Source of the DNA: Candidatus Heimdallarchaeota archaeon | GTDB taxonomy: Archaea; Asgardarchaeota; Heimdallarchaeia; Heimdallarchaeales; Heimdallarchaeaceae | DNA: 32,000 bases | Assembly: GCA_030668875.1 (NCBI GenBank) | Contig: DAOVER010000002.1 | Span: forward strand, 30,001-62,000 | Direction: 5' to 3' | Shown here: positions 11,229 through 27,353 of the stretch, in pieces | How positions within the stretch are numbered: position 1 is the first letter of the stretch | Layout of the letters: the number at the start of each line of letters is the position of its first letter | The notes under the pieces: model-generated | What the model was told of the DNA's origin: nothing | The model's database searches: none | The model's input: the letters and a program-made list of their open reading frames with translations, nothing else | Made by a program: the position numbers and the translations under genes

Positions 11229-12581
11229 CTAAAATATCCTTTTCTTGCCTTTTTGCTCTTTAATTTCAAGAACAATTTCACTCATTAAATGAATTAGATT
11301 TGCACTTAAAACATCGACACTATTTTTTAGTTCTTTTATTGCATCTACAACTTCTGTTAAATCAGATTTTTGTAATTGTTGAGAAACAGCTGGTACTTGA
11401 CTACTTGATTGTATTTGTTCCTCTAGTGTTTCGTCAAAAATCAGCACTTCTTGTTCAAACCTATCAGCTGGTGTTGGTAAAGGAATGGAAGATTCATCGA
11501 TTCTACGAGCTTTATCTATTTGCTTCTTACTAGATTCGCTTTTTAGTTTCTCCTTCTCTCGGATTTTTTCTAGATATGGCAAAACTTGTGAATAATCAAT
11601 ACCTTTTCTTCTCGCCATATCTGTAAGAAGTATATCTCTATACCCTGGATCTTCTATGTTGAGTTCAGAAATATCTTTTTCTAAATCTTGAATAATTGCA
11701 ATTGCACTGTAGATATCATCCTTAGAGAGTTTAGGTGCTGTTTTCTCCACTTTTGATTCCTTTATTTTCATTTCTTGTTTTAGTTCCTGAACGATAGATG
11801 TTGGAGTGACTACTTTGTCAGGAGTGGGAATTTCAGGAACAGGAGGTTGTTTAAGTGTGGTTACACTCTGTGTTTCAGGTTCAGGTTTCTCTTCAGTTAC
11901 TTCTTCAGTTTCACCCGATGGAACCTCAGAAATGAAGTTGAAAATATTGTTTGCTAATTTTTTATTGTTCCTTAATCTCAAACCTGATTTTAGATCGGAA
12001 AGCATTAAGTAAGATCCACAAGCCAAAACTGTTCCTAACCCGTACGAAGCCATAGCTAAAACTGTTGAACTTGGTGGATCACTATCAGAAGCTGTTCTTG
12101 CAAGTTCTATTCCGTTCTTACCTATGTTGATTGAACAACTCGATACCATAGTTATTTCTTTAATTCCTTCAGTTATGGAATGGTCGAAGAATTTGCTGAT
12201 AACTGGGTTACTTTCCAGTTTCAAATCATAGTTCTTATAATCAAAAATTTGGTTTGCTACTATCTCCATTTTGAAGTGTTTTAGAAGTGTATTTAGATTA
12301 GTGTTTAATCCTCTATCACCACCAGCATTAGCAAAAATTGCTATAGAACCCCCCTCATCTACAAATCGTAAGAGAGCTTTAACTTCATGCCCATACAATT
12401 TCGAACCATCGGGACAGAGAAACACAAGAATATCGTATTTAGAAATTTCTGAATACTTTATCGGAAATGTGTCCAAACGGCCGATTTGATGTCCTGAATC
12501 CTCAAGGGTTTCAGCTAATTTTCGAAAGTTATCAAAAATAAGACCTCTTTCTTTTTGGGTTTCGTCAAACAAAATTTTCAT
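11229..12581 (-). CDS. Cytoplasmic GIFT (GldG/IFT52-like) domain protein with a Pro/Glu/Thr-rich linker and C-terminal helical/coiled-coil domains
   Basis: ILFDETQKE; YDILVFLCP..KLYGHEVKALLRFVDEGGSIAIFANAGGDRGLNTNLNTLLKHF; GTVLACGSYLMLSD..NKKLANNIFNF. No signal peptide. ATG 12581 has an AGGTG SD. Confidence 0.75.
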   Translation of the reverse strand: MKILFDETQKERGLIFDNFRKLAETLEDSGHQIGRLDTFPIKYSEISKYDILVFLCPDGSKLYGHEVKALLRFVDEGGSIAIFANAGGDRGLNTNLNTLLKHFKMEIVANQIFDYKNYDLKLESNPVISKFFDHSITEGIKEITMVSSCSINIGKNGIELARTASDSDPPSSTVLAMASYGLGTVLACGSYLMLSDLKSGLRLRNNKKLANNIFNFISEVPSGETEEVTEEKPEPETQSVTTLKQPPVPEIPTPDKVVTPTSIVQELKQEMKIKESKVEKTAPKLSKDDIYSAIAIIQDLEKDISELNIEDPGYRDILLTDMARRKGIDYSQVLPYLEKIREKEKLKSESSKKQIDKARRIDESSIPLPTPADRFEQEVLIFDETLEEQIQSSSQVPAVSQQLQKSDLTEVVDAIKELKNSVDVLSANLIHLMSEIVLEIKEQKGKKRIF

Positions 12582-12777
12582 ATTAACACCTTGCAACTTT
12601 AAATAATCTCTTCGACTCTAGTGAGAACAGTTAAAAATTGATAAATATAAGTTTGATGTTGGTGAAAACAACCCAAAAAAGAATATAAATGTTCAATGTA
12701 GCATCTATTAACGAGAAACTTCACATCACTTAAACTTTAATATAGGCTGTTTCCAAATATAATTATCCGGTGAGTTA

Positions 12778-13699: not shown

Positions 13700-14686
13700 A
13701 TGAGCCAAATTGTTAAAATTACTTGTGGTTACTGTAATTCCCCAATTGATGTTAATCCGGAAGACGCAGTGTTCAACTGTGTCTCTTGTGGTCAGGCTTT
13801 CTTGTCAGATGGAACTGAATTCAAAAACCACTACATACTCGACAACAGGTTTAATCAGAAACAAATTCGAGACATTGTAAAGGGATTTATTAAGAAAAAG
13901 GGTTTCATGAGAGGGATTAAAGGTTACAAAATAACCAAATTTGAACCTATATTGATGCCATTTTGGGTAGCAACATCAGATGCTTATACTCACTATGTTG
14001 GGTATAAAAGATATACGGAAACAAAAACAAGGACTGTAGGTTCAGGTAAAAATAGACGAACTGTAACAGAACATGTAACAGTTTATCGTCCCGTTGATCA
14101 AGAAATTAGAGAAAAAAGAGCAGATGTTCTTCTAGGTAGAAGAGGAAGCTCTATGTATGGATATAGAAAAGTTAAACAGATTCTCCAAAGTGAATTTTCT
14201 CAGGCTGTTCCCTTTAACCATGATAGGTTGATGAATACAGAGAAGGAATTTGATTATCTGTCATCTGAAATTTCTTTAGATGCTGCGAATCAATTAGCAA
14301 AGACTGCAGTTTTTGATAATCACAGATCAAGAGCAGAGAGAGCCTGTACGAAAGTGTTTGACTGTGCTACGCAAATAGCATACACTGGAACTTATTTTGT
14401 TCATACTCCTGTATGGCAGATTGAATATGTCTTTCAAGATGAGACTTATAGAATAGCTATTCTTGGAAGCAGTGGTAAAATTATAGCAGGGGAGATTCCT
14501 GTTACAACTCGATTTAGAATGATATTTCTTGGACTTACAACCTTACTTTTCCTAGGCGGAGGAGTTGGAAGCTATTTCTTAGGTTTTGATGAATATATAT
14601 TTCCAATCGTTTTTGGTGTTATTGTTGCAATTATCGGTTTCTTCACGCTGAAAAACGTGTTTAAACCCGTGTCGGTGGTGGAATAA
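13700..14686 (+). CDS. Zn-ribbon membrane protein, paralog 1 (N-terminal CxxC-x15-CxxC, two C-terminal TM helices)
   Basis: CGYC...CVSC; PILMPFW; HTPVWQIEY...G.SGKIIAGEIP; two TM segments. ATG 13700 has a ttttatat TATA candidate about 28 nt upstream. Confidence 0.8.
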   Translation: MSQIVKITCGYCNSPIDVNPEDAVFNCVSCGQAFLSDGTEFKNHYILDNRFNQKQIRDIVKGFIKKKGFMRGIKGYKITKFEPILMPFWVATSDAYTHYVGYKRYTETKTRTVGSGKNRRTVTEHVTVYRPVDQEIREKRADVLLGRRGSSMYGYRKVKQILQSEFSQAVPFNHDRLMNTEKEFDYLSSEISLDAANQLAKTAVFDNHRSRAERACTKVFDCATQIAYTGTYFVHTPVWQIEYVFQDETYRIAILGSSGKIIAGEIPVTTRFRMIFLGLTTLLFLGGGVGSYFLGFDEYIFPIVFGVIVAIIGFFTLKNVFKPVSVVE

Positions 14687-14687
14687 G

Positions 14688-15677
14688 ATGAGAAGTATAA
14701 TGTGTCCAAATTGTGCAGCTCCGTTAGAATTAGAGGATACCCAAACCCATGTAACCTGTCCTTTTTGTAGCGTTACAAGTGAGCTAAAGAAAGTAGATCA
14801 GTTGATTGAGCACTACATGTTACCAGTTACATATGACGTGGATCAGATTAGGACAGAATTGGTTGGTGACATTCTTAAAAATCCCGGAACTCCTGACGAT
14901 TTACATACATCACTTAATATGAAGAAAGTGGATTTGAAATTCTATCCTTACTATATTGTGACGGTTCACCTTAGAACTGAATACAAGGGCAATGGTGAAT
15001 ATGCAACATTCAGTCATCGGTATAAATCAGGTTATAGAAATATTGAAACACATCTTAAACCTGAACAAGGTGTTTTCGATGATGAACGTGAATTCATCAT
15101 TTGGGGTTCAAAAGAGATTATCAACGATTTAATCAACTTCGAGATTTCCACACGTGGCAAAAGATATTTCCAAGCTTTAGAAGCAGACAAAGTGAAAGCA
15201 AAAATTGTGCCAACTGTATTGGATGTTGAACAAGCTAAAGTTCAAGGTGTTGCTACTATACGAGATATTCATAAGGGATTGATGTATAAAGAATTAGCTC
15301 AAATTCAAGAAGTCAAAGATAAACCTGAAGTTAAAGGAATATATCTACTACACATACCATTTTACTTCTTAGAATTTGAAGTAAACAAAAAGATGTATAA
15401 GGCAACCATGGATGCAGCTACTGGACGAACAGTAATCACTCAAATACCTAGGGAAACATCTTATTGGGCTTTGATAGGCATGTTATCCGCATTCTTCGGA
15501 GTTATAGGGATTGCAGGTATATTCTTTGCTGTTCAAGCTTCACAAGACGTTGGATTTTTCGGTTTAGGTATAAATTGGGTTGGAATTTTTGCAGCAATTG
15601 CGGGGATAATTTTAACGATTCGAACTCTTATGCTAGGATTACGCTCTAAATATAGAGAAACTAGACGAAAAAAATGA
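14688..15677 (+). CDS. Zn-ribbon membrane protein, paralog 2
   Basis: CPNC...CPFC; KFYPYY; HIPFYFLEF...DAATGRTVITQIP; two TM segments. It starts 1 nt after paralog 1 ends. Confidence 0.8.
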   Translation: MRSIMCPNCAAPLELEDTQTHVTCPFCSVTSELKKVDQLIEHYMLPVTYDVDQIRTELVGDILKNPGTPDDLHTSLNMKKVDLKFYPYYIVTVHLRTEYKGNGEYATFSHRYKSGYRNIETHLKPEQGVFDDEREFIIWGSKEIINDLINFEISTRGKRYFQALEADKVKAKIVPTVLDVEQAKVQGVATIRDIHKGLMYKELAQIQEVKDKPEVKGIYLLHIPFYFLEFEVNKKMYKATMDAATGRTVITQIPRETSYWALIGMLSAFFGVIGIAGIFFAVQASQDVGFFGLGINWVGIFAAIAGIILTIRTLMLGLRSKYRETRRKK

Positions 15678-15693
15678 TAGAGTGAAAAGTTTT

Positions 15694-15722
15694 AAATTCC
15701 TCTTTTTTCTTTTATTTACTTA
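15694..15722 (+). terminator. Oligo-T terminator candidate
   Basis: aaattcctcttttttcttttatttactta after the stop of the Zn-ribbon pair. Confidence 0.4.
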
Positions 15723-15744
15723 TCATAATCGATGTTGATTGACC

Positions 15745-16488
15745 ATGGAAGAAAAAGTTCCTATTTTTGTTGACTTTGGTGGCACTCTTGTAGACACAAT
15801 AGGTATAACCGCTGAAGTTTTTGAAGAAGTTTTGGGAAAGAAATTTTCTCACGATCAAATTAAGAAAATGTATAAAGATGCTTCTAAAAAAAGAATGAGT
15901 ATGTACATGTTTTTTAAATATCCAGTAAACCCAATTAAGCTCTCTCTAAAGAGGAAGAAACTTCAAGAATTACAGATAGAGAAATTTTTGGAAATCAAGA
16001 AATTGATACCTAATGCAAAGGAAACTCTCCAAAAAATAAAGAAACTTAAAAACATCGAACTTGTGCTAGTTACTCAAAATCCAACAATGCAAGACGATGC
16101 TGTTTCTAAAAAGGTTCTTCAAAATCTCTTTGGCAAAGACGTTCCTTTTGATTTTCTATTAGCAGGTGATGATAAAGTCGAATTGATTGCAACTAATTAT
16201 GATACAGAAACGATTTCTAGGGCAGTTATCATTGGGGATTTACCAAATGATGTTTATGTGGCGAAAATTCTCCAAATCCCTTGTTTTGGTGTAACTTGGG
16301 GATATTCTGAGGAAAGCGAATTAGATACTCCATTTATTGCTGAAGAAGCTCTTGAGTTATTTGATTTAGTTAAAGATCATTTAGAAGACCTCAAAGAAGA
16401 CAAAGAACGAGAAAATGATCTTGAGGAATTTGAGTTTGATGAATCATTCCCTGAACTAGAGAAGGATTATGAACTTGTTGATGAATAA
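15745..16488 (+). CDS. HAD-superfamily hydrolase (phosphoglycolate phosphatase-like) with an acidic C-terminal tail
   Basis: IFVDFGGTLVDT (motif I), LVT (motif II), IIGDLPNDVYVAK (motif IV) and GVTWGY. Confidence 0.88.
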   Translation: MEEKVPIFVDFGGTLVDTIGITAEVFEEVLGKKFSHDQIKKMYKDASKKRMSMYMFFKYPVNPIKLSLKRKKLQELQIEKFLEIKKLIPNAKETLQKIKKLKNIELVLVTQNPTMQDDAVSKKVLQNLFGKDVPFDFLLAGDDKVELIATNYDTETISRAVIIGDLPNDVYVAKILQIPCFGVTWGYSEESELDTPFIAEEALELFDLVKDHLEDLKEDKERENDLEEFEFDESFPELEKDYELVDE

Positions 16489-16497
16489 TAACAGTTG

Positions 16498-16830
16498 TCA
16501 TTTGCCTATTTCAAGAATATGATTAGCTACCAATTCAGCAACTTCAGGTATTTTAGGTTTTACTTCATCAAAAAGTTTTTCGGAATTTTTGTTAGCATTT
16601 TCTATTAATTTTTTGTAATCCGAAGTGTCTTTCGCCTCTTCTACTTTCTTCTTAAGTATCTCTCTAGCTTCTGTCTTTGCATGCTCAAGTCTTCTTATCC
16701 TCTCGCTTTGTGCTTTTTCTATGACTAGAGCCGATTCTATTTCTGCTTCTTTTACAATTTGTTCTGCTCGATGTTCAGCAACCTTTATTTGTTTTATTAG
16801 TTCTTGTTCAGTTGATGGCAAATATTTCAC
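16498..16830 (-). CDS. atpH: A/V-type ATP synthase subunit H (G), peripheral stalk
   Basis: Coiled coil ELIKQIKVAEHRAEQIVKEA...AKTEA. The start may be TTG 16821, which follows a GGTGA SD. Confidence 0.85.
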   Translation of the reverse strand: MKYLPSTEQELIKQIKVAEHRAEQIVKEAEIESALVIEKAQSERIRRLEHAKTEAREILKKKVEEAKDTSDYKKLIENANKNSEKLFDEVKPKIPEVAELVANHILEIGK

Positions 16831-17870
16831 CTGATATAGCCTTCTTAACCAGCTATGTGAGAGGGCAATATGCTAAATTACTTACCCAAGAAGACTTTGA
16901 AAATTTAATAAATAAACCTTATGAATTGTTCATTCAGGATTTGTTAAGTTTTGAAATAGGTGAAAAATTAAAAGACTTTCCTGAATATCAACCTCACCAA
17001 TTAGAAAAATTGCTGACAGATAGTTTACTTGACCAATATGTGTTTATATTAAAATACTCTCCAAAATGGTCTAAAGAGTTTTCTGAAGCATATACAACTA
17101 AATTCGAAGTAATGAACATTCAAAGAATTATAAGATACCTTTATTCAAAAGCAAAGGTGGATTTGAAGGATGTTATCAATTTGAGACCACAAGAAATGCT
17201 TGGAAGAACAGCTTTTATTTCGAAGTTAATCTTAGCAAAAGATTTAACAGAACTTCTTGATTTACTTAAGAAATCTGAATATGGGAAAGAAATAGAGGTT
17301 GCTGAAAAATTGTATTCCAAAATCAATGATATATGGCCGTTAGAATTCGCAATAGAAGCATTTTATCTTAAGAAAATAATATCCAAAGCTGAGAAATTAA
17401 AGCTAAGCCAAAGGAAAGGTACAATGAATTTTGTTAAGAATGAATTGCTAACTAATATTTTATTAGTGATTCTAAAAGCTGATTTTGTTGAAGTAGATAT
17501 ACAAGAGGCATTGCAACTTGTCCCCATACCTGACGAACTTCCTTTTAGAAAGCAAATTCTCAAGATGATGGAGGACAATGATTTAAAAAGTGATTTAGAA
17601 CTTCTGAAAACTTTTGCTTCAGATAAGATTTCGAAGGGCATTGATCTGTTCCTTGAGGATAAAATGTTTTTACATATCGAAATTGCGGTCAGAGCAAGTG
17701 AATTAGAGACAATAAGAAAAACCTTTCATTCTGATTTTGGGATTCTTAGTATAATGTGCTATTTGAAAATGTATGAATCTCAGATTCAAGACCTAAACAA
17801 ACTACTTTATCTTAAAGAATACAAGTTTCCTGTAGAGAAAACAAAAGAATTAATTGTAAACTTAGTATAA
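16815..17870 (+). CDS. atpC: A/V-type ATP synthase subunit C (V0 d homolog)
   Basis: AFLTSYVRGQYAKLLTQEDFENL N-terminal motif, FEVMNIQRIIR, and C-terminal CYLKMYESQIQDL..LL..KE. All-helical, about 350 aa, and located among ATPase genes. Confidence 0.88.
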   Translation: MANISPDIAFLTSYVRGQYAKLLTQEDFENLINKPYELFIQDLLSFEIGEKLKDFPEYQPHQLEKLLTDSLLDQYVFILKYSPKWSKEFSEAYTTKFEVMNIQRIIRYLYSKAKVDLKDVINLRPQEMLGRTAFISKLILAKDLTELLDLLKKSEYGKEIEVAEKLYSKINDIWPLEFAIEAFYLKKIISKAEKLKLSQRKGTMNFVKNELLTNILLVILKADFVEVDIQEALQLVPIPDELPFRKQILKMMEDNDLKSDLELLKTFASDKISKGIDLFLEDKMFLHIEIAVRASELETIRKTFHSDFGILSIMCYLKMYESQIQDLNKLLYLKEYKFPVEKTKELIVNLV

Positions 17871-17879
17871 TGACACTCG

Positions 17880-18350
17880 TTAAGCCAGATTAAGGAGAAT
17901 GAATGCAATTAGTAAACCGTAAATTGCTAAAGCTTCACCTAGCCCTAAATAGATAAGATTTGAAGTGAAAACTTCAGAATTTGCAGTTAATGACCCAATA
18001 GCCGCAGGTTCTCCCTTAGTTAAAGTTATAGCAGCTCCTATATTAGAAATGATCATTATTGCCATCGCTCCAAGGAAAATGAATCCTTGGGTTTCTGTGA
18101 ATTCTGCTTCTGCCACTCCGGTAATCGCATCACTTAGTTTTGTATACATAATAAATGCAACCAACAACCCGTAAATAGCTAGTGCTTCAGCAAGCGCTAG
18201 ATATATTAGAATGAAAATATTCAGTCGTTGCTTTTCTGCGACAGCAGCAGCTGCAGCTTGAATCCCTTTAGCTAAAGGTATGCCAGCTCCAATAATTGTG
18301 AGCATTGTACCAGCAATTGCAATAATTCCTAATAGTATACTATTTACCAT
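17880..18350 (-). CDS. atpK: A/V-type ATP synthase proteolipid subunit K (c), duplicated 4-TM form
   Basis: Two hairpins, LAEALAIYGLL (E55) and LGEALAIYGLL (E139). Confidence 0.95.
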   Translation of the reverse strand: MVNSILLGIIAIAGTMLTIIGAGIPLAKGIQAAAAAVAEKQRLNIFILIYLALAEALAIYGLLVAFIMYTKLSDAITGVAEAEFTETQGFIFLGAMAIMIISNIGAAITLTKGEPAAIGSLTANSEVFTSNLIYLGLGEALAIYGLLIAFILLNLA

Positions 18351-20370
18351 CCTTACTCAAATCCATTGTTTTATTAAATATAAATATTGGTTTATGTTGT
18401 ATTCCGCTACCTTCATAGAATTTACTGAAAAATTCATAGAAATGTAATCTTAAAGTTTGAACGAATACTAGAAGCCCTTCTAGAACTAACACAAAGATAT
18501 TTCCGATTAATAGGATTAAAATTTGCCACACGATAAAACCAGAAAGATCTGCTAATGTGTTGATAACACTAAGAAAAACAAAATGAGCTACAAGCATAGC
18601 AAGCATTCTGCCGTAAGAAATAGTATTGCTTGTGAAAGAACTAAATGATTCTAGTAAATTCATCACACCCATCCCAATTCCACCAAAGAATTTTCTGAAA
18701 AAGTTTTTCCTCTCATCCTTTATAATTAATGCAGCAATACCTTGACCAAAAAGTGCTAAAGTCACACCCAAAATCAATGCAACTAATCCCACAATAGCAG
18801 GAATTTCTACACCAAAATTAATGATGTCAAGAGAACTTAAGAAATAGAGGATACCCGCATATAGAAAAACTTGGGCTCCAGTTTCTTTTATTATTTCCTC
18901 AATCTCTTTATGTCTAATTTGATTAATTAATCGAAGAGTCAATCCCAGCACCAGTTGTATTGCACCAATAATTAGTACAAGATTGAAAATCTCAATTAGA
19001 CTACCAACTGGACTTAAAGCTGGATAGTGATATCCAAATAATTGAGGATTTGTCCAACCAAAGATGTCATGAGAAATTCCATATCCAAAAAATTCACCAA
19101 AGACAAAAGCACCCCAGATAAAGGAAGTTAGTCCTATAGAAAAAACTAGAATAAACATAGTGCGGATATTACTCTTTAACCCCTTAGCTAGCATTCCCAA
19201 TATGCCTATTAGCATGAGAATTAGACCATGACCAGCGTCTCCGAACATAATTCCATAAAATATACTAAATGTAAAAACAAGGAATATTGTTGGATCTACC
19301 TCTTTTGATGAAGGTAACCCATAAAGTTCAACAATAGATTGAAATGATTTCATTATAGGGTTCTTAGCTTTTTTGATAGGTACATTTCTTGTTTCTTCAT
19401 CTGGTTCTTCAGTTTCAAAGACTGTTTCAGAGAACTCTGAAATAAAATCTTTTATGTAATTTTGATCCTTTTGAGCAATCCACCCTTGGAAAATTACTGT
19501 TCTTTTTGTTTTCTTTGAAGTTACGTAAATCCAAAGCAACTGTTTATAACTCTCAATTGATAATCGTAAAGACATTATTTTTTCCTTATTTCGAATAGTA
19601 TATTGTTTTGAATCTTCCTCAAGTTTCTTAATTTCCTTCTCTAAATCCTTAGATCTTTTAGCAATTTCCTTCTCAATCTCCAATTTACTGAAATGAATGT
19701 GACCACTATATTTGTGTTCCATCCATCTAACTGTTGATATTGTTTTGAGAAACCTTGTGATTTCTCCCTTTTTACCCTGAGCATAAATTAAAAATTTATT
19801 GTGGACTAATGGAATGATTTCTTTCTTTGATAAATACTTGACAAACTCTTCAGCATCTGATGCTTTTGATGTAGTTAATATCCCTATAATGGCTCTCTCT
19901 TTCTCATTAACTTGGTACGGAAATTCTTCTTCAAGTAATCTAAAACCTTTAGAGACTAGATTCTTTGTTTCGAGTTCATTTTGACTAGTTTCTATTCTTG
20001 TGATTAGCTTGTGTATTTCATTATTTGTTTTTTCTATTTCTTCAATGATTTTTTCCTCAATCTCTTCAATGTTTTCCCAATTAGTAAATAATGGCTCTAA
20101 AGGAGGAATTTTTTGATAAGCTCTAGCTATTTTTTGAGAAAGTTTCTCTTTGAGTTCAGGAAGCATTTTCAACAAATTCTCAAACGAGCTCTCTATACGT
20201 CTGATAGAATCAAGTTTGGTTGTTGGAAAGTAGTCTTCTAATTCCTCAATTATTGTAGTTTCTTTAGGCATGAATTTTTCAGTTTCCGCCAGCTGAATTA
20301 TTAACTTGGGGAAGTCTTCTATTGGAACTATGATCGTTGCCTTCAGCATCGTTTGTGGAAATAAACTCAT
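18340..20370 (-). CDS. atpI: A/V-type ATP synthase subunit I (a)
   Basis: YGLP..KEVDPT, FYGIMFGDAGHG, SNTISYGRMLAMLVAH (essential Arg) and QTLRLHFYEFFSKFYEG. Confidence 0.97.
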   Translation of the reverse strand: MSLFPQTMLKATIIVPIEDFPKLIIQLAETEKFMPKETTIIEELEDYFPTTKLDSIRRIESSFENLLKMLPELKEKLSQKIARAYQKIPPLEPLFTNWENIEEIEEKIIEEIEKTNNEIHKLITRIETSQNELETKNLVSKGFRLLEEEFPYQVNEKERAIIGILTTSKASDAEEFVKYLSKKEIIPLVHNKFLIYAQGKKGEITRFLKTISTVRWMEHKYSGHIHFSKLEIEKEIAKRSKDLEKEIKKLEEDSKQYTIRNKEKIMSLRLSIESYKQLLWIYVTSKKTKRTVIFQGWIAQKDQNYIKDFISEFSETVFETEEPDEETRNVPIKKAKNPIMKSFQSIVELYGLPSSKEVDPTIFLVFTFSIFYGIMFGDAGHGLILMLIGILGMLAKGLKSNIRTMFILVFSIGLTSFIWGAFVFGEFFGYGISHDIFGWTNPQLFGYHYPALSPVGSLIEIFNLVLIIGAIQLVLGLTLRLINQIRHKEIEEIIKETGAQVFLYAGILYFLSSLDIINFGVEIPAIVGLVALILGVTLALFGQGIAALIIKDERKNFFRKFFGGIGMGVMNLLESFSSFTSNTISYGRMLAMLVAHFVFLSVINTLADLSGFIVWQILILLIGNIFVLVLEGLLVFVQTLRLHFYEFFSKFYEGSGIQHKPIFIFNKTMDLSKDGK

Positions 20371-20378
20371 TTCATCAC

Positions 20379-21014
20379 CTAGTTGAATAAATACTCGTTA
20401 ATCTTTGTTCTAATTATATCTCTGCTTTCTTCTAATAAATATTCTATTGTATAGTCTATTCTAACTCGTTCTTCTTTATCTGTAAGAATAAAACCTCCAG
20501 ATGTTACTAATTCTGTTATTTCTATGATAAATTTAACATTCTTTTCTTTTTCAAGTTTTGTAACAACTTGCTTAATTATGCTTTCATCTCTTTTGTCAAT
20601 TAAAAGTTTCATATCTTTAGATTGAAATGCCCTTTGAGTTGATTCCAGCTTACTTTCAAGATATTTTTTGTATTCTGAATTTTTTCTGAAATTTGACAAA
20701 TCTTTTTCAACTTTCTCATAGACTTCATCAATCAGTTTCTCTTTGGTTTGAATTCTTATTCTTTTTGCTTTTTGTTGATATTCAGCTTCTGTTCTCTTTC
20801 TAATATATTCTAAACGTGGCAATTCTTTTTCCAGTTCTTTATCTTTTATTTCTGAAATAAGTTCTTTTGTTTCTTTCTCAAAGTTTACAAGCTTTTTTCG
20901 AGTCTCTTCCCTCATTCTTTTTGCTTCATTTTCTGCTTCAGAGATAATTTTCTTCAGTAGATTATCTAAGTTTGTAGAGGAATGTTCTTCTCTTTGTTTT
21001 TGTTTATCTACCAT
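20379..21014 (-). CDS. atpE: A/V-type ATP synthase subunit E
   Basis: KIISEAENEA coiled coil and C-terminal GGFILTDKEERVRIDYT domain. Confidence 0.93.
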   Translation of the reverse strand: MVDKQKQREEHSSTNLDNLLKKIISEAENEAKRMREETRKKLVNFEKETKELISEIKDKELEKELPRLEYIRKRTEAEYQQKAKRIRIQTKEKLIDEVYEKVEKDLSNFRKNSEYKKYLESKLESTQRAFQSKDMKLLIDKRDESIIKQVVTKLEKEKNVKFIIEITELVTSGGFILTDKEERVRIDYTIEYLLEESRDIIRTKINEYLFN

Positions 21015-21023
21015 TTTATCACT

Positions 21024-21461
21024 TCACACTGGATAGAGTAGTACTGGAATAGATGCTATTTCAATAACGTACCTAATATGATTTTTTAACAACCTTTTTG
21101 CTATTCTCACTCTTTTCGTACCCATTGTAATAAAATCCACTTCTTCTTTCAAAGACGCTTCAATAATTGATTCTGATATTATTCCCGTTTCAATACTATA
21201 GGTGATATAAAGATGAGAATCAGAGTAAATATTAATGATTTTTTGTAACATATTTTCACTTTCAATTTTACATTTCTTTTCTACATCTTCAGTAGTTTTC
21301 CCTCTAAAGTTTGCTAGATACTGAACTGTTTCACTATCAATAACATTAATTAGATGAATCTCAGTAACCCAGTCATCAAAAAAGTCGACGATTTGTTTGA
21401 TTAAGCTTATTCCACTTTCAAAATCACTTATAGCAACTAGAGCTTTTTTAATTATTAGCAC
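21024..21461 (-). CDS. Universal stress protein (UspA family) embedded in the ATPase operon
   Basis: KKALVAI; IHLINVID; G..SESIIEASLKEEVDFITMGT; RYVIEIASIPVLL. Confidence 0.88.
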   Translation of the reverse strand: MLIIKKALVAISDFESGISLIKQIVDFFDDWVTEIHLINVIDSETVQYLANFRGKTTEDVEKKCKIESENMLQKIINIYSDSHLYITYSIETGIISESIIEASLKEEVDFITMGTKRVRIAKRLLKNHIRYVIEIASIPVLLYPV

Positions 21462-22098
21462 CTCTTTTTCTTAATTTTTTTTCTTCTAGCTTACTTTTCA
21501 ATTTCTTAATAGTGTAAATGTTCTCCAATTCATATGATTCAAGAGCATCCTCGATAAATTTGATTATATTTCGGAATCTTATTCTATATACTTTGTCTAA
21601 AGCATTCAGATTTAGTTGTATTGATTGTAAATTGCTCATGATTCTAAAAGCAAGACTCTCAATTTCAGCAAGCTGAATAATTTGATGAAATGTTTCTCTA
21701 AACCTTTCAGCTGTTATCCATAAAAGACTTGATATTCCAAAAAAACCATAGGAAGTATCAGGAAGATTTTCTACTTCTAAATTCATGTAATCAACGCCCA
21801 TATACTCTGTAGGCATAGAATGAATTTCAACTTCCTTAGGTATTGTGTCACTAAAAACATTGATCATTTCTCTTCCAAGCTCTGATTCTGTTTTAATATA
21901 TTCAATGTAAGCTTCACTGAGACCTTTTTCCATCTCTATTCTTGAAGTAGCTACTTCTGCAGTTATTATATGCAATTTCATTAAGAGAGCTTCATATTTT
22001 TCTCGTAAAAGATCATATGCTCTTTCAACCAACTTTAGTTTCCTCTTATATTTGAGCAAATTGTCTTTTGTTGGTGAAACGGTAATAGCTTCTCTCAT
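21448..22098 (-). CDS. atpD: A/V-type ATP synthase subunit D (central stalk)
   Basis: SPTKDNLLKYKRKL..AYDLLREK and QLAEIESL...NALDKV...IKFIEDALE. ATGA overlap with the atpB stop. Confidence 0.92.
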   Translation of the reverse strand: MREAITVSPTKDNLLKYKRKLKLVERAYDLLREKYEALLMKLHIITAEVATSRIEMEKGLSEAYIEYIKTESELGREMINVFSDTIPKEVEIHSMPTEYMGVDYMNLEVENLPDTSYGFFGISSLLWITAERFRETFHQIIQLAEIESLAFRIMSNLQSIQLNLNALDKVYRIRFRNIIKFIEDALESYELENIYTIKKLKSKLEEKKLRKRGANN

Positions 22099-23489
22099 TT
22101 GTCTTTTTCAACTCGATTGAATAGATGTTTTTCAATTTCCTCTGAAGATAATTTGGTGAGTTCTGAAACTGGAAGTAATGACAAAAGTGACCACCCTAAC
22201 TCTAATGACTCTTGCATCGTTCTCTGAGCGTCTCCTTGATTAATAAATAATTCTTCAAATTTCTCAGAAAATTCCAAATAAACTTGATCAATACGATTTA
22301 ATTCTTTCTTTCCAATAACTTCAGCCAATTTTCTTTTATCTACTCCTTCTGCATATGCTGCATATAGTTGATCGCTTAGACCTGGATGATCCTTTCTTGT
22401 GAATCCCTCACCAATTCCATCCTTCATAAGTCTAGAAAGTGAACCCAGGACATCTATAGGTGGATAAATCCCACTTGAATGAAGTGATCTGTCTAGAATA
22501 ATTTGCCCTTCTGTTATATAACCAGTTAAATCAGGAATTGGGTGGGTTATATCATCATTTGGCATTGTTAAATTAACTAGAAGGGTTATGCTACCATTTG
22601 AACTCTCTACTATGCCTGAACGTTCGTAAAGCGATGCTAGATCGCTATACATGTATCCTGGAAAACCTTTTCTTGCAGGAACAGTTTCTAAAGCAACTGA
22701 AACTTCTCTTAGTGCTTGACAATAGTTGGTGATGTCTGATAAAATTGTAAATACATGATAATCTTTTTCAAAAGCTAGATATTCTGATGTTGTTAAAGCA
22801 ACTCTAGGCGTAAGAAGCCTTTCTGCAGCTGAATCACTTGCTAGATTAGCAAACATTACAACTTTATCTAGAGTTCCAGTCTCTTTGAATAAATGCTGAA
22901 AATAGATATAATCATCCATGGTTAAACCCATTGCTCCAAAAACAATTGCAAAATTTTCTCCTTTATCTTCTTCAACTATTCTTGCATGTCTAACTATCTG
23001 TCCAATAACTCTATTGCTGGGCAATCCTGCACCAGTAAACACAGGGAGTTTTTGCCCTCGAACAATAGTATTCATAAGATCAATTGCAGATATGCCTGTT
23101 TCTATGTAATTTTTGGGATAAACTCTTGAAGTTGGATTGATAGGTGCTCCATTAACATCTAAAAATTCGTCTGAATAAACTGCTGGCAGACCATCAAGAG
23201 GTTCTCCAAGAGAATTAAATGTTCTCCCAATCATACTCTCTGAAACAAAAAGTTGCATTGTTCTTCCAAAGAACTGTGTTTCTATGTCATCTTTATTTAT
23301 TTCATAAGTTCCTTGGTATAATAGAATTATTACTCTTTCTTCCTCAATAGCTAAGACTCTTCCTTTACGAATTTGATTGTCATGAATTTTAACTTCTAAA
23401 TATTCTCCCATTTGTATCCCTGATACACCATCGACAACTATCAATGGTCCTCGAATTTCCGATACTCCTTTAACAGTTATTCTTGCCAT
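22095..23489 (-). CDS. atpB: A/V-type ATP synthase subunit B
   Basis: TGISAIDLMNTIVRGQKLP, ERLLTPR, PGYMYSDLA.LYER, THPIPDLTGYITEGQI and SLSRLM. Likely start is ATG 23489. Confidence 0.97.
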   Translation of the reverse strand: MARITVKGVSEIRGPLIVVDGVSGIQMGEYLEVKIHDNQIRKGRVLAIEEERVIILLYQGTYEINKDDIETQFFGRTMQLFVSESMIGRTFNSLGEPLDGLPAVYSDEFLDVNGAPINPTSRVYPKNYIETGISAIDLMNTIVRGQKLPVFTGAGLPSNRVIGQIVRHARIVEEDKGENFAIVFGAMGLTMDDYIYFQHLFKETGTLDKVVMFANLASDSAAERLLTPRVALTTSEYLAFEKDYHVFTILSDITNYCQALREVSVALETVPARKGFPGYMYSDLASLYERSGIVESSNGSITLLVNLTMPNDDITHPIPDLTGYITEGQIILDRSLHSSGIYPPIDVLGSLSRLMKDGIGEGFTRKDHPGLSDQLYAAYAEGVDKRKLAEVIGKKELNRIDQVYLEFSEKFEELFINQGDAQRTMQESLELGWSLLSLLPVSELTKLSSEEIEKHLFNRVEKDK

Positions 23490-23496
23490 TATGTTA

Positions 23497-26400
23497 TCAA
23501 ATCCTGTTCCCACATCTAGAACCAACTTCTTCCATTTCAGAATGGATATAATCCTCAATCTTATTCAATTGTATAAGATTCTCATTGCTTACATCTTCCT
23601 TCATTCTTTTAAGAAAGTGAACTGATTTCAATGAGGTAATTAAGGAAATAGGACAACCATTTTTGATAAGAATGTCAGCTCTTTGATAAAAGAGAAGTAT
23701 TAACTTCATCATTTTCATTTGTTTGTCTAATGGGCAAAAAGTATCAACTGGATGGAAAGCGCTTTGTTGTAGTATTCCACTTTTGATTATATCTGCTATT
23801 AGAATTATCAGTTGTTCATCTGAAGGAAGTGCTTTTGCTCCTATTAACTCAATAATGTGTTGCAATTCTTCATCCTTTATAAGTAAATTCATCATTTCTT
23901 GACGATATCGGCCCCAATCTTCTAAACCGGATTCAAGCGCCCATTCTTCTATCTCAGATATATATCCAGAATAGCTGCTTAACCAGTTAATTGAAGGAAA
24001 ATGTTTCCTGTTAGCTAAAGTTGAATCTAATCCCCAAAACGTTTTAACGAATCTCTTTGTATTCGCCGTTACTGGTTCACTAAAATCTCCGCCTGGTGGT
24101 GAGACAGCTGCAGTAATGTTGATTGACCCTTCACGATATGGAGAACCAATTGGTATAACCTTACCGGCTCTTTCATAGAAATTCGCTAATCTTGTACCTA
24201 GGTAAGCTGGAAAACCTTCCTCTACAGGTAACTCTGCTAACTGTCCTGATATTTCCCTTAAAGCTTCAGCCCATCTGCTTGTACTGTCCGCTGTTAATAA
24301 AACGGCATACCCTTGATCACGATAATATTCTGCCATCGTTATGCCCATGTAGATAGATGCTTCCCTAGCAGCTACAGGCATATTGGAAACATTTGCTAAA
24401 AGAATAGTTCTAGCCATTAGAGGATTATCAGTATAAGGATCAATTAGTTTTGGAAACTCCCTTAAAACATCTGTCATTTCATTCCCTCTTTCTCCACAGC
24501 CTATATAGACGACAACGTTGGCATTACTCCATTTTGACATTTGGTGCTGAATGACTGTGTTATGAAGGACAAATGGCTCATTTCCACCTATAAAATTGTG
24601 ATATTTTTCGACAACTAGATCATAAACTTCTTCATCCCAATTTAACAATTCTATTGCTTTTATTTCATCAAAATAGAATTCTGAGTGTAGTTGTTTGATA
24701 TAATCTAACCTTTGAACTATATCCAAAGATTCTTCTGGACTATCATCCTGATTCTGTTCTTTTATTAAATAAATTATATCTTCTAAAGTTTTGTTGGTGA
24801 TTTTCCTTCCCGTTGAAACATTTTTAATAGCGGTAAGAGCTTTTGATTTCCTAGGGTTGGAATGTGAGTTGATAAATAGTTTCTTACTTTCAGTTAAGAG
24901 ATTTATACTAATAGGGATAGCATCAGAAGAAATAAAATGATCGATGTTTTTTATTGTATAGCCATAAATTTTCTTTGTCTTTTCATATTCTGTTACGCCG
25001 TGCATCTTGAATAGATGTCCTAATTCTTCTAATTGGGAACCTTCAATTGATATCCTATAATAATCATGGTCCTTAACAGTCTGCTTAGTTTTTCTATATA
25101 TAATGTTCAATCTGCTTAATATATAACATAAACCTGAAGAAATGCTCTTACTTGCTGTTGCAATTTCTAATGTATATCCTTTTACATAACCATCCCCAGC
25201 TATGTAGGCGTTCAGAAAATGTATCAAATCTTCATCCTCAGACATTTGAATCAAATCAGGTACAGAGGCAGTTCTAGATTTCTTTTCTGAAGGGAAATTA
25301 AGGTATTGAAGGAAAATTCCCACAGGTCTAGAGTAGAATACGGTTGTTTTAACGTTGTTCTCGACCCTTTCTTTAGATTTTGAATCAAACAGGATTTGAA
25401 CAAGTGTTGAAAACCTCTCTCTAATTTGATTATCATTGTTATATAGATACATTGTTTTGTAATTGGTTATTCTGCCATCAGATAGAAGCAATCCAAGAAA
25501 TTCTGCTAATTCTGGATTCATTTCATTAGGTAGTTTAACGCTGTCACTTTGCCTTTCAGCTTTAACAGTCTTAAAATTGATTTCTTTTTTTGTTATCCTT
25601 TGAAGTTTTTTTATAAATCTCAATGTTGGATTATTTATACCATAATAAAACCCATTAAAAACATCAGCTGAAACATTTAATTTTTCTGCCATCTGTATAA
25701 GCGAAATATTATTCAAACTAATATATTTATCAACACTTTCTCTGATTTCCTTTATAGCATTTTTATCAGCTGTTCGTAAAGAATCATCTATATCATAAAC
25801 ACTTATTTTCTTTCTTGTGATGTTCTTATAATGATAACTTAGTTTTCTCGGACTTAAAACAAACTCACCGACATTAAGTTTTTGAGATTCTTTTTCTATA
25901 CTTTCTTTTCCATCGAAAATTTGCAACTTATGGAGTGGTGTTAAGGTTACACTTCTTCCTTTCTTTGTAGTAACTCTTATCATTTTACTGCTGTAACCTT
26001 TGTACAAATGAGTAGCTTTGCCTTCAGTTATATATCCATCTTTTTGATTGAATGATAATACTCTTAGAGGTTTTTTTAACCTTATCAAAGTTTCATCATC
26101 AGAATCTTTCTCAACTAAGTTATCACCATCTAGAGCTTCTTTATACAAATCTTCAATCTTCTCTAGGTTTCCTTCTTTGCGCAGAATTAGTGTATCACCA
26201 GATACACATTTACCTGTTCCAAAACCTCCTGGAATTGCTGCAGTTCCTCCTTTTGCTATTGGGAAAAACATATCTATTATTCTCTGACCTGTGATGAGCG
26301 GTTCTGATACAGGTAGTTTAGTTGAAAATGGTCTTGCGATTCTTACTGGCCATTCATGCATTAAACTTATTTCTTCTTTCTTCCCATCATTGTTCTTGGA

Positions 26401-26949
26401 TAGAAGAATTGGTTCAATAATAGTATAATCACCCTTCTCCTGAATCTCAATTAGCTCTCCAGAGAAGTCAGGAGGAGCCAAAATTTTACTGATGATTGTC
26501 TTTGTTTCTTGAACTTCTCCAAGAACATCCCCCCCATGAATAATGTCTCCTTTCCCTATTTCTTTATTTGGTTCAAATTGCCATTTCTTTTGTCTGTCTA
26601 GAGCATTTATCCTAATTCCTCTTCTGATGAAATCGGATTTAGAAATCTGTTTAATCCTATCTAAGGGGCGTTGTATGCCATCAAAAATATTAGAGAGCAA
26701 TCCAGGTCCCAACTCAGCTGTTAGTGATTTGCCAGTAGGATAGACTGGGTCATTTATTCTTAATCCTTCAACAGGTTCGTAGACCTGAATTGTAGCAATG
26801 TCTCGTTCTACTACGATTACTTCACCTACCAATCGTTCCTCTCCCACGTAAGTAATCTCACCCATTCTGTATGAAGAAAGACCTTTAACTTGTACTATTG
26901 ACCCATTTATTGAAACAATGCGGCCATCCTCTTCCTTAATGACAGACAT
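23497..26949 (-). CDS. atpA: A/V-type ATP synthase catalytic subunit A, intein-containing
   Basis: Walker A PGGFGTGK|TV split by the intein; [32 protein letters not shown] and [13 protein letters not shown]. Likely start is ATG 26949. Confidence 0.98.
24559..26208 (-). mobile_element. Intein (550 aa) with LAGLIDADG homing endonuclease, in the AtpA P-loop
   Basis: Block A CVSGDTLI; block B TLTPLH; blocks C and [13 protein letters not shown] and [10 protein letters not shown]; block F VYDLVV..HNF; terminal HN followed by extein Thr. Removing it restores GTGKTVIQHQ. Confidence 0.97.
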
Positions 26950-27041
26950 ATATCTAAATCTGATTTGAATGTTAAGTATTTTGCTGTTCAACAATTAGCA
27001 TAAAACCTAAACTTTTAAACGCAAATTCAAGTAGTCTAAGT
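26950..27041. promoter_or_regulatory. Divergent (possibly bidirectional) promoter region between atpA and atpF
   Basis: 92-bp gap between the two start codons. It contains cttttaaac near 27014-27022, which reads TATA-like on both strands. Confidence 0.45.
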
Positions 27042-27353
27042 ATGGCTGACCTTGAAACTACCAAAAAAGCATTTGTCATCGGGGCAAGAGAAACTGTTAG
27101 GGGTTTCAATTTAATTGGTGTTCCAGGAAAAGAAGTTCATGATTCTGCTGAAGTTATGGAAACATTGGAAGAAGTGCTTGAACAAGATTATAGTGTCATA
27201 ATTCTTTCTGCTTCATATACATTTGAAATCGAGAACCAGATAATTGAATTAAGAAAAAATGTTCGGACTCCTATTGTAATTGTTTCAGATGTCAATATGC
27301 AAGTTGATGTTAAGCAAATTGAGAAACAATTTAGATCATTTGTTGGCATTTGA
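27042..27353 (+). CDS. atpF: A/V-type ATP synthase subunit F
   Basis: FVIGARETVRGFNLIGV, DYSVIIL, PIVIVSD and C-terminal ..SFVGI. Confidence 0.93.
   Translation: MADLETTKKAFVIGARETVRGFNLIGVPGKEVHDSAEVMETLEEVLEQDYSVIILSASYTFEIENQIIELRKNVRTPIVIVSDVNMQVDVKQIEKQFRSFVGI

Follow-up and report, generated by a model that had tools for sequence, protein, structure and literature searches.

A conserved head-to-head overlap of atpC and atpH, with a candidate promoter inside each gene, in a compact ATPase cluster of Heimdallarchaeaceae

We observed that the genes atpC and atpH of a compact ATPase cluster lie head-to-head and overlap at their 5' ends. Each of the two genes probably harbours the promoter of the other, and these promoters would face each other; atpC would then be leaderless and the cluster would form at least four transcription units following an old inversion. 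The locus is a comparatively supported case of two real protein genes placed head-to-head, each with a predicted archaeal promoter in the codons of the other. The analysis concerned a window of 32,000 nt, that is the whole stretch of DNA under study, which comes from a MAG of Candidatus Heimdallarchaeota (family Heimdallarchaeaceae, GC approximately 33%).

Gene content and layout of the cluster

Genes were called by ORF listing and Pfam scans of the window, and their positions are presented in Table 1. They agreed with the coordinates given in a preliminary description of this DNA, and the distance of 9 nt which it had reported between the stops of atpK and atpC was exact. The order of the genes was atpF, then A-B-D-Usp-E-I-K, then C, then H; the strand changes three times along it, and a Usp gene is inserted. 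From the HAD-family hydrolase gene to atpK the strand flipped at every gene, and the spacers measured 9, -7 and 9 nt. The co-directional block from atpA to atpK is likely one operon, and its order was kept in all relatives for which there was enough flank. We found atpF divergent from atpA in two relatives too (L066 and L067), while in another one (L064) it was absent beside atpA.

Table 1. Positions of genes, overlaps and predicted signals in the window
Feature	Position	Strand	Remarks
HAD-family hydrolase	15739-16488	+	convergent with atpH
HAD/atpH convergent pair			9-nt gap
atpH	16498-16821	-	probable peripheral-stalk subunit H/G, 107 aa; TTG start
T5-T6 runs	16576-16614	+	three runs, after HAD stop and before predicted atpC promoter
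Predicted atpC promoter	16773-16791	+	BRE-like CAGCAA and TATA-like CTTTATTTG; within atpH codons 10-18
atpC/atpH head-to-head CDS overlap	16815-16821		7 nt; ATGGCAA / TTGCCAT
Predicted 5'-5' mRNA overlap of atpC/atpH	16815-16885		approximately 71 nt; covers both translation starts
atpC	16815-17870	+	subunit C/d, 351 aa; inverted relative to atpA..atpK
Shine-Dalgarno GGTGA of atpH	16827-16831	-	5 nt before TTG; inside atpC codons 5-6
Predicted atpH promoter	16909-16931	-	TTCATAAGG and TATA-like TTTATTTA at 16916-16909; within atpC codons 32-39
atpK/atpC convergent stops	17871-17879		9-nt gap; 9-28 nt in relatives
atpA-B-D-Usp-E-I-K block	17880-26994	-	co-directional; Pfam scans
atpK	17880-18350	-	two c-subunit hairpins
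atpI	18340-20370	-	
atpE	20379-21014	-	
Usp	21024-21461	-	
atpD	21448-22098	-	
atpB	22095-23558	-	
atpA	23497-26994	-	with intein; true start may be ATG 26948
atpF	27042-27353	+	PF01990, 48 bits; divergent from atpA

The product of atpC matched PF01992 (AC39) with 97.1 bits at a cut-off of 29, with profile positions 3-338 of 339 covered, and its match to TIGR02923 AhaC was under the cut-off. For atpH we obtained 22 bits with Pfam V-ATPase_G_2 (below the cut-off of 28, E=2.5e-4), 22.4 bits with AhaH TIGR02926 (below the cut-off of 48.5, E=1.1e-4) and full-length matches to V-type G profiles from PDB (E=0.04-0.09). On the basis of its size, its coiled-coil character, these weak but consistent matches and the gene context, atpH probably encodes subunit H/G.

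Further features of the cluster were recorded. The length of AtpA, 1165 aa, is due to an intein with a LAGLIDADG homing-endonuclease domain; intein-free atpA products of 597-601 aa were present in three relatives (L064, L065 and L066). The Usp-family gene between atpD and atpE occupied the same place in every relative with enough flank, the most divergent included. AtpK (156 aa) has two ATP-synt_C hairpins; like its counterparts in V-type enzymes, it is a proteolipid of the duplicated 16-kDa type. The spacer between atpF and atpA (26949-27041) has approximately 93 nt with ATG 26948 as the start of atpA and 47 nt with TTG 26994. TTTTAAA was found at about -28 of the atpF ATG and CAGCAAAATACTTAA at about -37..-23 of the atpA ATG, and the motif CAGCAA was common to the atpA upstream spacer and the predicted atpC promoter.

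Conservation of the gene order and of the start codons

We collected 24 distinct sequences, which comprised the locus in 15 other species of the genus, the results of a genome-collection scan and contigs of the most divergent atpB/atpC relatives. The order H(-), C(+), K(-) was present in all 24 distinct Heimdallarchaeaceae assemblies, which answered the question, raised with the preliminary description, of whether relatives share it; the assemblies come from independent projects and had the same register. Identity of atpC across these relatives ranged from 92% down to approximately 48%. The HAD neighbour was kept within the genus and replaced in L064 and L068, where the flanks differ. Because the layout is conserved in independent assemblies from many studies, neither mis-assembly nor chance can account for it.

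All 24 assemblies had the ATG of atpC. They all had a start codon at the place of 16821-16819 as well (TTG in 19, ATG in 3, GTG in 2), and in every sequence the distance from the A of this ATG to the first codon of atpH was 6 nt. Two upstream starts were considered and rejected. One of them was GTG 16830 for atpH, where four assemblies (L009, L064, L068 and L069) have GAG. The other was TTG 16812 for atpC, in place of which several species have an in-frame TAG; since this TAG stands immediately 5' of the ATG, there is no upstream start of atpC. Since a start codon stands at 16821 in every case and GTG 16830 does not persist as one, the overlap has 7 nt. An overlap of 7-16 nt had been proposed before; the value of 7 nt held, and that of 16 nt, which assumed the start at 16830, did not.

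The coding sequences beside the overlap were also compared. On the C side Pro6, Asp7 and Leu11 were conserved, on the H side Ser3, Lys4, Glu7 and Ile8-9, and on both sides the synonymous codons varied. Therefore both frames are translated up to the overlap. No conserved start was detected downstream of the atpC ATG among the assemblies compared; the Pfam model starts at residue 13 of AtpC, and there was no conserved alternative start before that residue. Divergent overlaps in annotations are often start-codon errors, and several public calls shorten atpC to 308-341 aa, which would fit a mis-assembled inversion or over-extended ORFs and no real overlap. Given the identical order and register in the 24 assemblies, the conserved starts on both sides, the in-frame stop just upstream of the atpC ATG in several species and the conserved residues with synonymous variation described above, we consider such an artefact extremely improbable.

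The shortened public calls (records P0132-P0155; L066 and L068) often result from the use of a downstream start. They conceal the head-to-head overlap.

Constraint on synonymous sites

Codon alignments were prepared, and for each column we calculated the entropy of synonymous codons among the sequences that share the majority residue. The background consisted of 1844 eight-codon windows from eight genes (H, C, K, I, E, Usp, D and B) in 16 genomes. The relatives are not independent, so the rank within the same alignments was used as the statistic and not p-values.

The lowest of the 1844 windows lay at atpH codons 10-18, with a synonymous entropy of 0.0-0.04 vs a gene mean of approximately 0.8 (0.78 with 21 sequences); these are nine invariant codons in a row among the 21 sequences. 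The second-lowest locus was formed by atpC codons 32-39 (entropy 0.08-0.2 vs a gene mean of approximately 1.03). TATA candidates had been named earlier at 16783-16800 (+) and 16904-16916 (-), and these proved to be the two most synonymously constrained spots in the cluster. Invariant codons in the frozen stretches were AAG (21/21), ATA (21/21), CCT (18/18) and TTC (20/20), while other columns mixed synonymous codons. The third-lowest locus was the 11-nt overlap of atpI and atpK (18340-18350 with flanks), where the constraint is consistent with an embedded ribosome-binding site of atpK and translational coupling. As this is a known kind of embedded signal, we used it as a positive control for the method.

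The frozen codons of atpH encode a conserved QIKxAE and those of atpC a conserved NLINKPYE, and the signal could in part reflect protein constraint and codon preference, or a constraint at the RNA level. Freezing of synonymous sites can map promoters in uncultivated lineages.

Candidate promoters

Since there is no intergenic DNA between the two genes, the promoter signals are to be sought inside coding sequence. Read on the + strand, atpH codons 10-18 give GTTCAGCAAnCTTTATTTG, and atpC codons 32-39 read on the - strand give TTCATAAGGTTTATTTATTAA; in both cases an A-rich element is followed by a TATA-like box. TTTATTT, preceded by A-rich sequence, occurs in both frozen stretches on the strand that is sense for the partner.

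The usual geometry of starts was determined in 660 long ORFs with a single unambiguous ATG start, taken from the whole genome. A Shine-Dalgarno-like motif was present in 276 of the 660, with a G peak at -12..-8. Among the 384 ORFs without such a motif, TTTAT, TTTAA and TTATA were enriched 3- to 5-fold, beginning at -32..-29, and this TATA peak was preceded by an A-rich stretch at -35..-32. Judging from the sequence, such a peak marks mRNAs that are leaderless and have a BRE/TATA promoter.

In atpC we found TTTATTT at -31..-25 of the ATG, which places the TATA-like box (16784-16790) with its centre approximately 26-28 nt upstream, and no Shine-Dalgarno motif was detected upstream of atpC in any of the 24 sequences. 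Because the box begins at -31 and so matches the TATA peak of genes without a Shine-Dalgarno motif, atpC looks leaderless. It is most simply read as a putative leaderless gene, the promoter of which would be written into atpH. The relatives L064 and L068, which are without the HAD gene, yet keep the atpC box.

For atpH, a TATA-like box with a conserved downstream stretch was observed approximately 90 nt upstream of the gene. It was TATA-like in the divergent L064 and L068 too, and a G on the - strand near 16885, the predicted transcription start of atpH, was invariant. The Shine-Dalgarno motif of atpH, located at -10..-6, fits the G peak of the genome and was conserved: four genomes have GGAGA or GGAGC, the others GGTGA. 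A leaderless atpH was rejected: positions 16846-16852 held no TATA-like or conserved sequence (entropy 1.9-2.1). On each strand one or more T5-T6 runs came before the promoter box, after the HAD stop on one and after the atpK stop on the other, which is a terminator-then-promoter order.

We also scored the boxes with a PWM built from the leaderless class of the genome. The scores were 7.0 for atpC and 7.2 for atpH (both 99.9th percentile), with the reservation that at 33% GC the PWM is unspecific and rates neighbouring sites that are not conserved just as high or higher, e.g. 16585-16568 (-), and its rank was not taken as independent proof of either box.

Model of expression and alternative explanations

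The model which we consider probable would begin with an inversion of a single gene, old and now fixed, after which atpC and atpH of this accessory, compact cluster for an A/V-type ATPase stood head-to-head. For each gene, an archaeal BRE/TATA promoter of its own would lie within the partner's first 40 codons, and the two promoters would face each other at a distance of approximately 125 bp. Transcription starts were placed at the TATA centre plus approximately 27 nt (atpC at about 16815, atpH at about 16885). The atpC promoter (TATA 16784-16790) would then fire rightward and yield a leaderless mRNA starting at or beside ATG 16815, while the atpH promoter (TATA 16916-16909) would fire leftward from about 16885 and yield an mRNA with a 5' UTR of approximately 64 nt, GGTGA and the TTG start. 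The two mRNAs would be complementary over approximately 70 nt (roughly 16815-16885), and this stretch would hold the 5'-terminal AUG of atpC together with the Shine-Dalgarno motif and TTG of atpH. Functional mRNAs of the two genes would overlap by at least approximately 17 nt, because the coding sequences overlap by 7 nt and the Shine-Dalgarno motif of atpH lies 6-10 nt further inside atpC. There would be at least four transcription units: F; A-B-D-Usp-E-I-K; C; and H.

It had been argued in the preliminary description that without intergenic space each gene depends either on a promoter inside the other gene or on read-through. This reasoning was sound, and the frozen boxes favour embedded promoters. 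The candidate non-contiguous operon in its headline was borne out as a topology, since atpK(-), atpC(+) and atpH(-) follow each other with gaps of 9 and -7 nt in 24 assemblies; neither the frozen atpH box nor the ordinary oligo-T load favours it as a transcript. The defining mark of a non-contiguous operon is a transcript running across the antisense gene, and according to the literature a transcriptome is needed to call one (PMC11034616). We looked for RNA sequencing runs covering 14500-22500 of the window, and none was listed. In a true non-contiguous operon, the atpA..atpK transcript would cross antisense atpC and supply most of the atpH mRNA, with mutual repression between it and the atpC mRNA. 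We regard this as unlikely, although atpH has the same orientation as atpA..atpK and belongs functionally to the same complex, the 9 nt between the stops of atpK and atpC leave no room for an intergenic terminator, and the Shine-Dalgarno motif of atpH requires a 5' leader. With its own conserved TATA-like box atpH does not need read-through, and at least one T5+ run was present between atpK and atpH in every species. The strand antisense to atpC carried 3.6-4.2 T5+ runs per kb, compared with 4.55 for antisense strands of the genome and approximately 2.0 for sense strands. Because this load is at the ordinary antisense level, about twice the sense level, nothing suggests that the strand has been cleared for read-through. 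Read-through from atpK may nevertheless add to the expression of atpH besides its own promoter. A T4-T6 run on the K strand at the atpK/atpC junction, found in 18 of 20 species at 24-31 nt past the atpC stop and at least 33 nt past the atpK stop, was considered as a conserved terminator and rejected: conserved Glu-Lys codons in atpC explain it, and it showed no synonymous freezing.

It is also conceivable that the frozen sites are not promoters but reflect protein constraint with codon bias, 5' structure of the mRNA or a translation ramp, or the site of a regulator or sRNA, and that the two genes are served by read-through from HAD and atpK. Constraints other than promoters are common in the 5' parts of genes, to which both frozen stretches belong; the stretches encode highly conserved residues, and the PWM finds comparable matches nearby that are not conserved. 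The codon choice, in turn, goes against the mix seen in other columns (AAG, ATA and TTC being invariant), and atpC agrees with the leaderless class of the genome in the motif, in the distance from it to the ATG and in the absent Shine-Dalgarno motif. Transcription of atpC by read-through from HAD, the other route named in the preliminary description, is unlikely, with three T5-T6 runs after the HAD stop and an atpC TATA that persists in L064, where HAD is missing; these runs and the box kept in both relatives without HAD also weigh against the sites not being promoters. All in all, we find that explanation quite improbable.

If the genes have embedded, facing promoters, polymerase collision, promoter occlusion or RNA-RNA pairing might, purely by inference, couple the output of C and H, and one can speculate that interference controls the stoichiometry of C. 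The arrangement could as well be a frozen accident that is tolerated. It seems rather unlikely that the promoter pair is a dedicated ratio or switch device that gates assembly of the accessory ATPase, or that the locus is the first non-contiguous operon shown in Archaea. Such a device would work by collision and occlusion between two archaeal initiation complexes, tying the synthesis of C, the single-copy rotor socket, to that of H, the peripheral-stalk subunit, and vice versa; this dependence would be increased if a duplex of approximately 70 nt masked the leaderless atpC AUG as well as the Shine-Dalgarno motif and TTG of atpH.

Comparison with known systems

The head-to-head layout is conserved and, as a transcriptional architecture, it is not unprecedented. 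One face-to-face promoter pair is pR/pL of phage 186. Another is scbA/scbR of Streptomyces coelicolor, the transcripts of which overlap by 53 bp (PMC3134472). Effects expected of such pairs are sitting-duck collision, promoter occlusion and antisense pairing. Like scbA/scbR, the pair described here consists of divergent genes with promoters that would point at each other, and the 5' overlap (approximately 70 nt, as predicted here) would cover a ribosome-binding region. Unlike in scbA/scbR, the coding sequences of atpC and atpH overlap and both predicted promoters lie inside coding sequence; archaeal TBP, TFB and RNAP would be used, with one mRNA predicted to be leaderless; and the genes encode two subunits of one complex and not a regulator and its target.

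Divergent excludons (Listeria; ExcludonFinder, PMC12288877) are likewise divergent neighbours with overlapping 5' transcript ends. For atpC and atpH the overlap of 5' ends follows from the 7-nt overlap of coding sequences and the embedded Shine-Dalgarno motif, and its extent of 71 nt is predicted. Excludons are defined from transcriptomes and usually join opposing functions; they also act through RNase III, which is absent from most archaea.

A non-contiguous operon has been described in S. aureus, namely menEC-MW1733-ytkD (PMC11034616). There, too, a gene on the opposite strand is wedged between co-directional related genes with almost no spacer. In our case the antisense gene atpC belongs to the same complex and is no antagonist, and the sequence points to a separate promoter of atpH. 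In the literature that we searched, no promoter map for Asgard archaea was found. To our knowledge, dual coding of protein and BRE/TATA signals has rarely been documented in archaea, and we know of no case in Asgard archaea.

Second ATPase set and distribution of the cluster

The canonical archaeal A1AO operon is ahaHIKECFABD (Methanosarcina mazei type), and the bacterial V-type counterparts are the ntp operons. The cluster in the window contains the same nine subunit families, but it is arranged as F, A-B-D-Usp-E-I-K, C and H, and the genome has a second set. The order H-I-K-E-C-F-A-B-D, which had been taken as the usual one, is valid for euryarchaeal operons and not as the baseline of this lineage, whose other set is dispersed.

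The cluster of the window type was confined to one clade of Heimdallarchaeaceae. Outside this clade the identity of atpB was approximately 55% (52% for the native B2) and that of atpC did not exceed 29%. Other genera and families of the order had only the dispersed type, in which atpC follows atpI co-directionally. Because the cluster is confined to the Heimdallarchaeaceae clade, the inversion appears to be old and fixed in a distinct lineage of accessory ATPases. A recent transfer from a donor with the same layout was considered and rejected: no such donor was found, and the atpB of approximately 55% identity outside the clade was of bacterial V-type.

The presence of compact and dispersed rotary ATPases in the genus bears on how the energy metabolism of Asgard archaea and the ancestry of eukaryotic V-ATPase are reconstructed. 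In the genome studied here the two rotary-ATPase sets are the compact cluster in the window and a set dispersed over several loci. The latter includes an A2-B2 pair on contig C12 (L042 9307-12561, -) and, on contig C91 (L003 6909-11100, +), an atpI paralogue of 1065 aa followed by a second atpC in the same direction. Aside from this subject, a protein encoded at 11229-12596 (-) of the window gave a match to the GIFT domain of IFT52 (E=4e-10), and its gene was kept near the cluster in L066 and L067.
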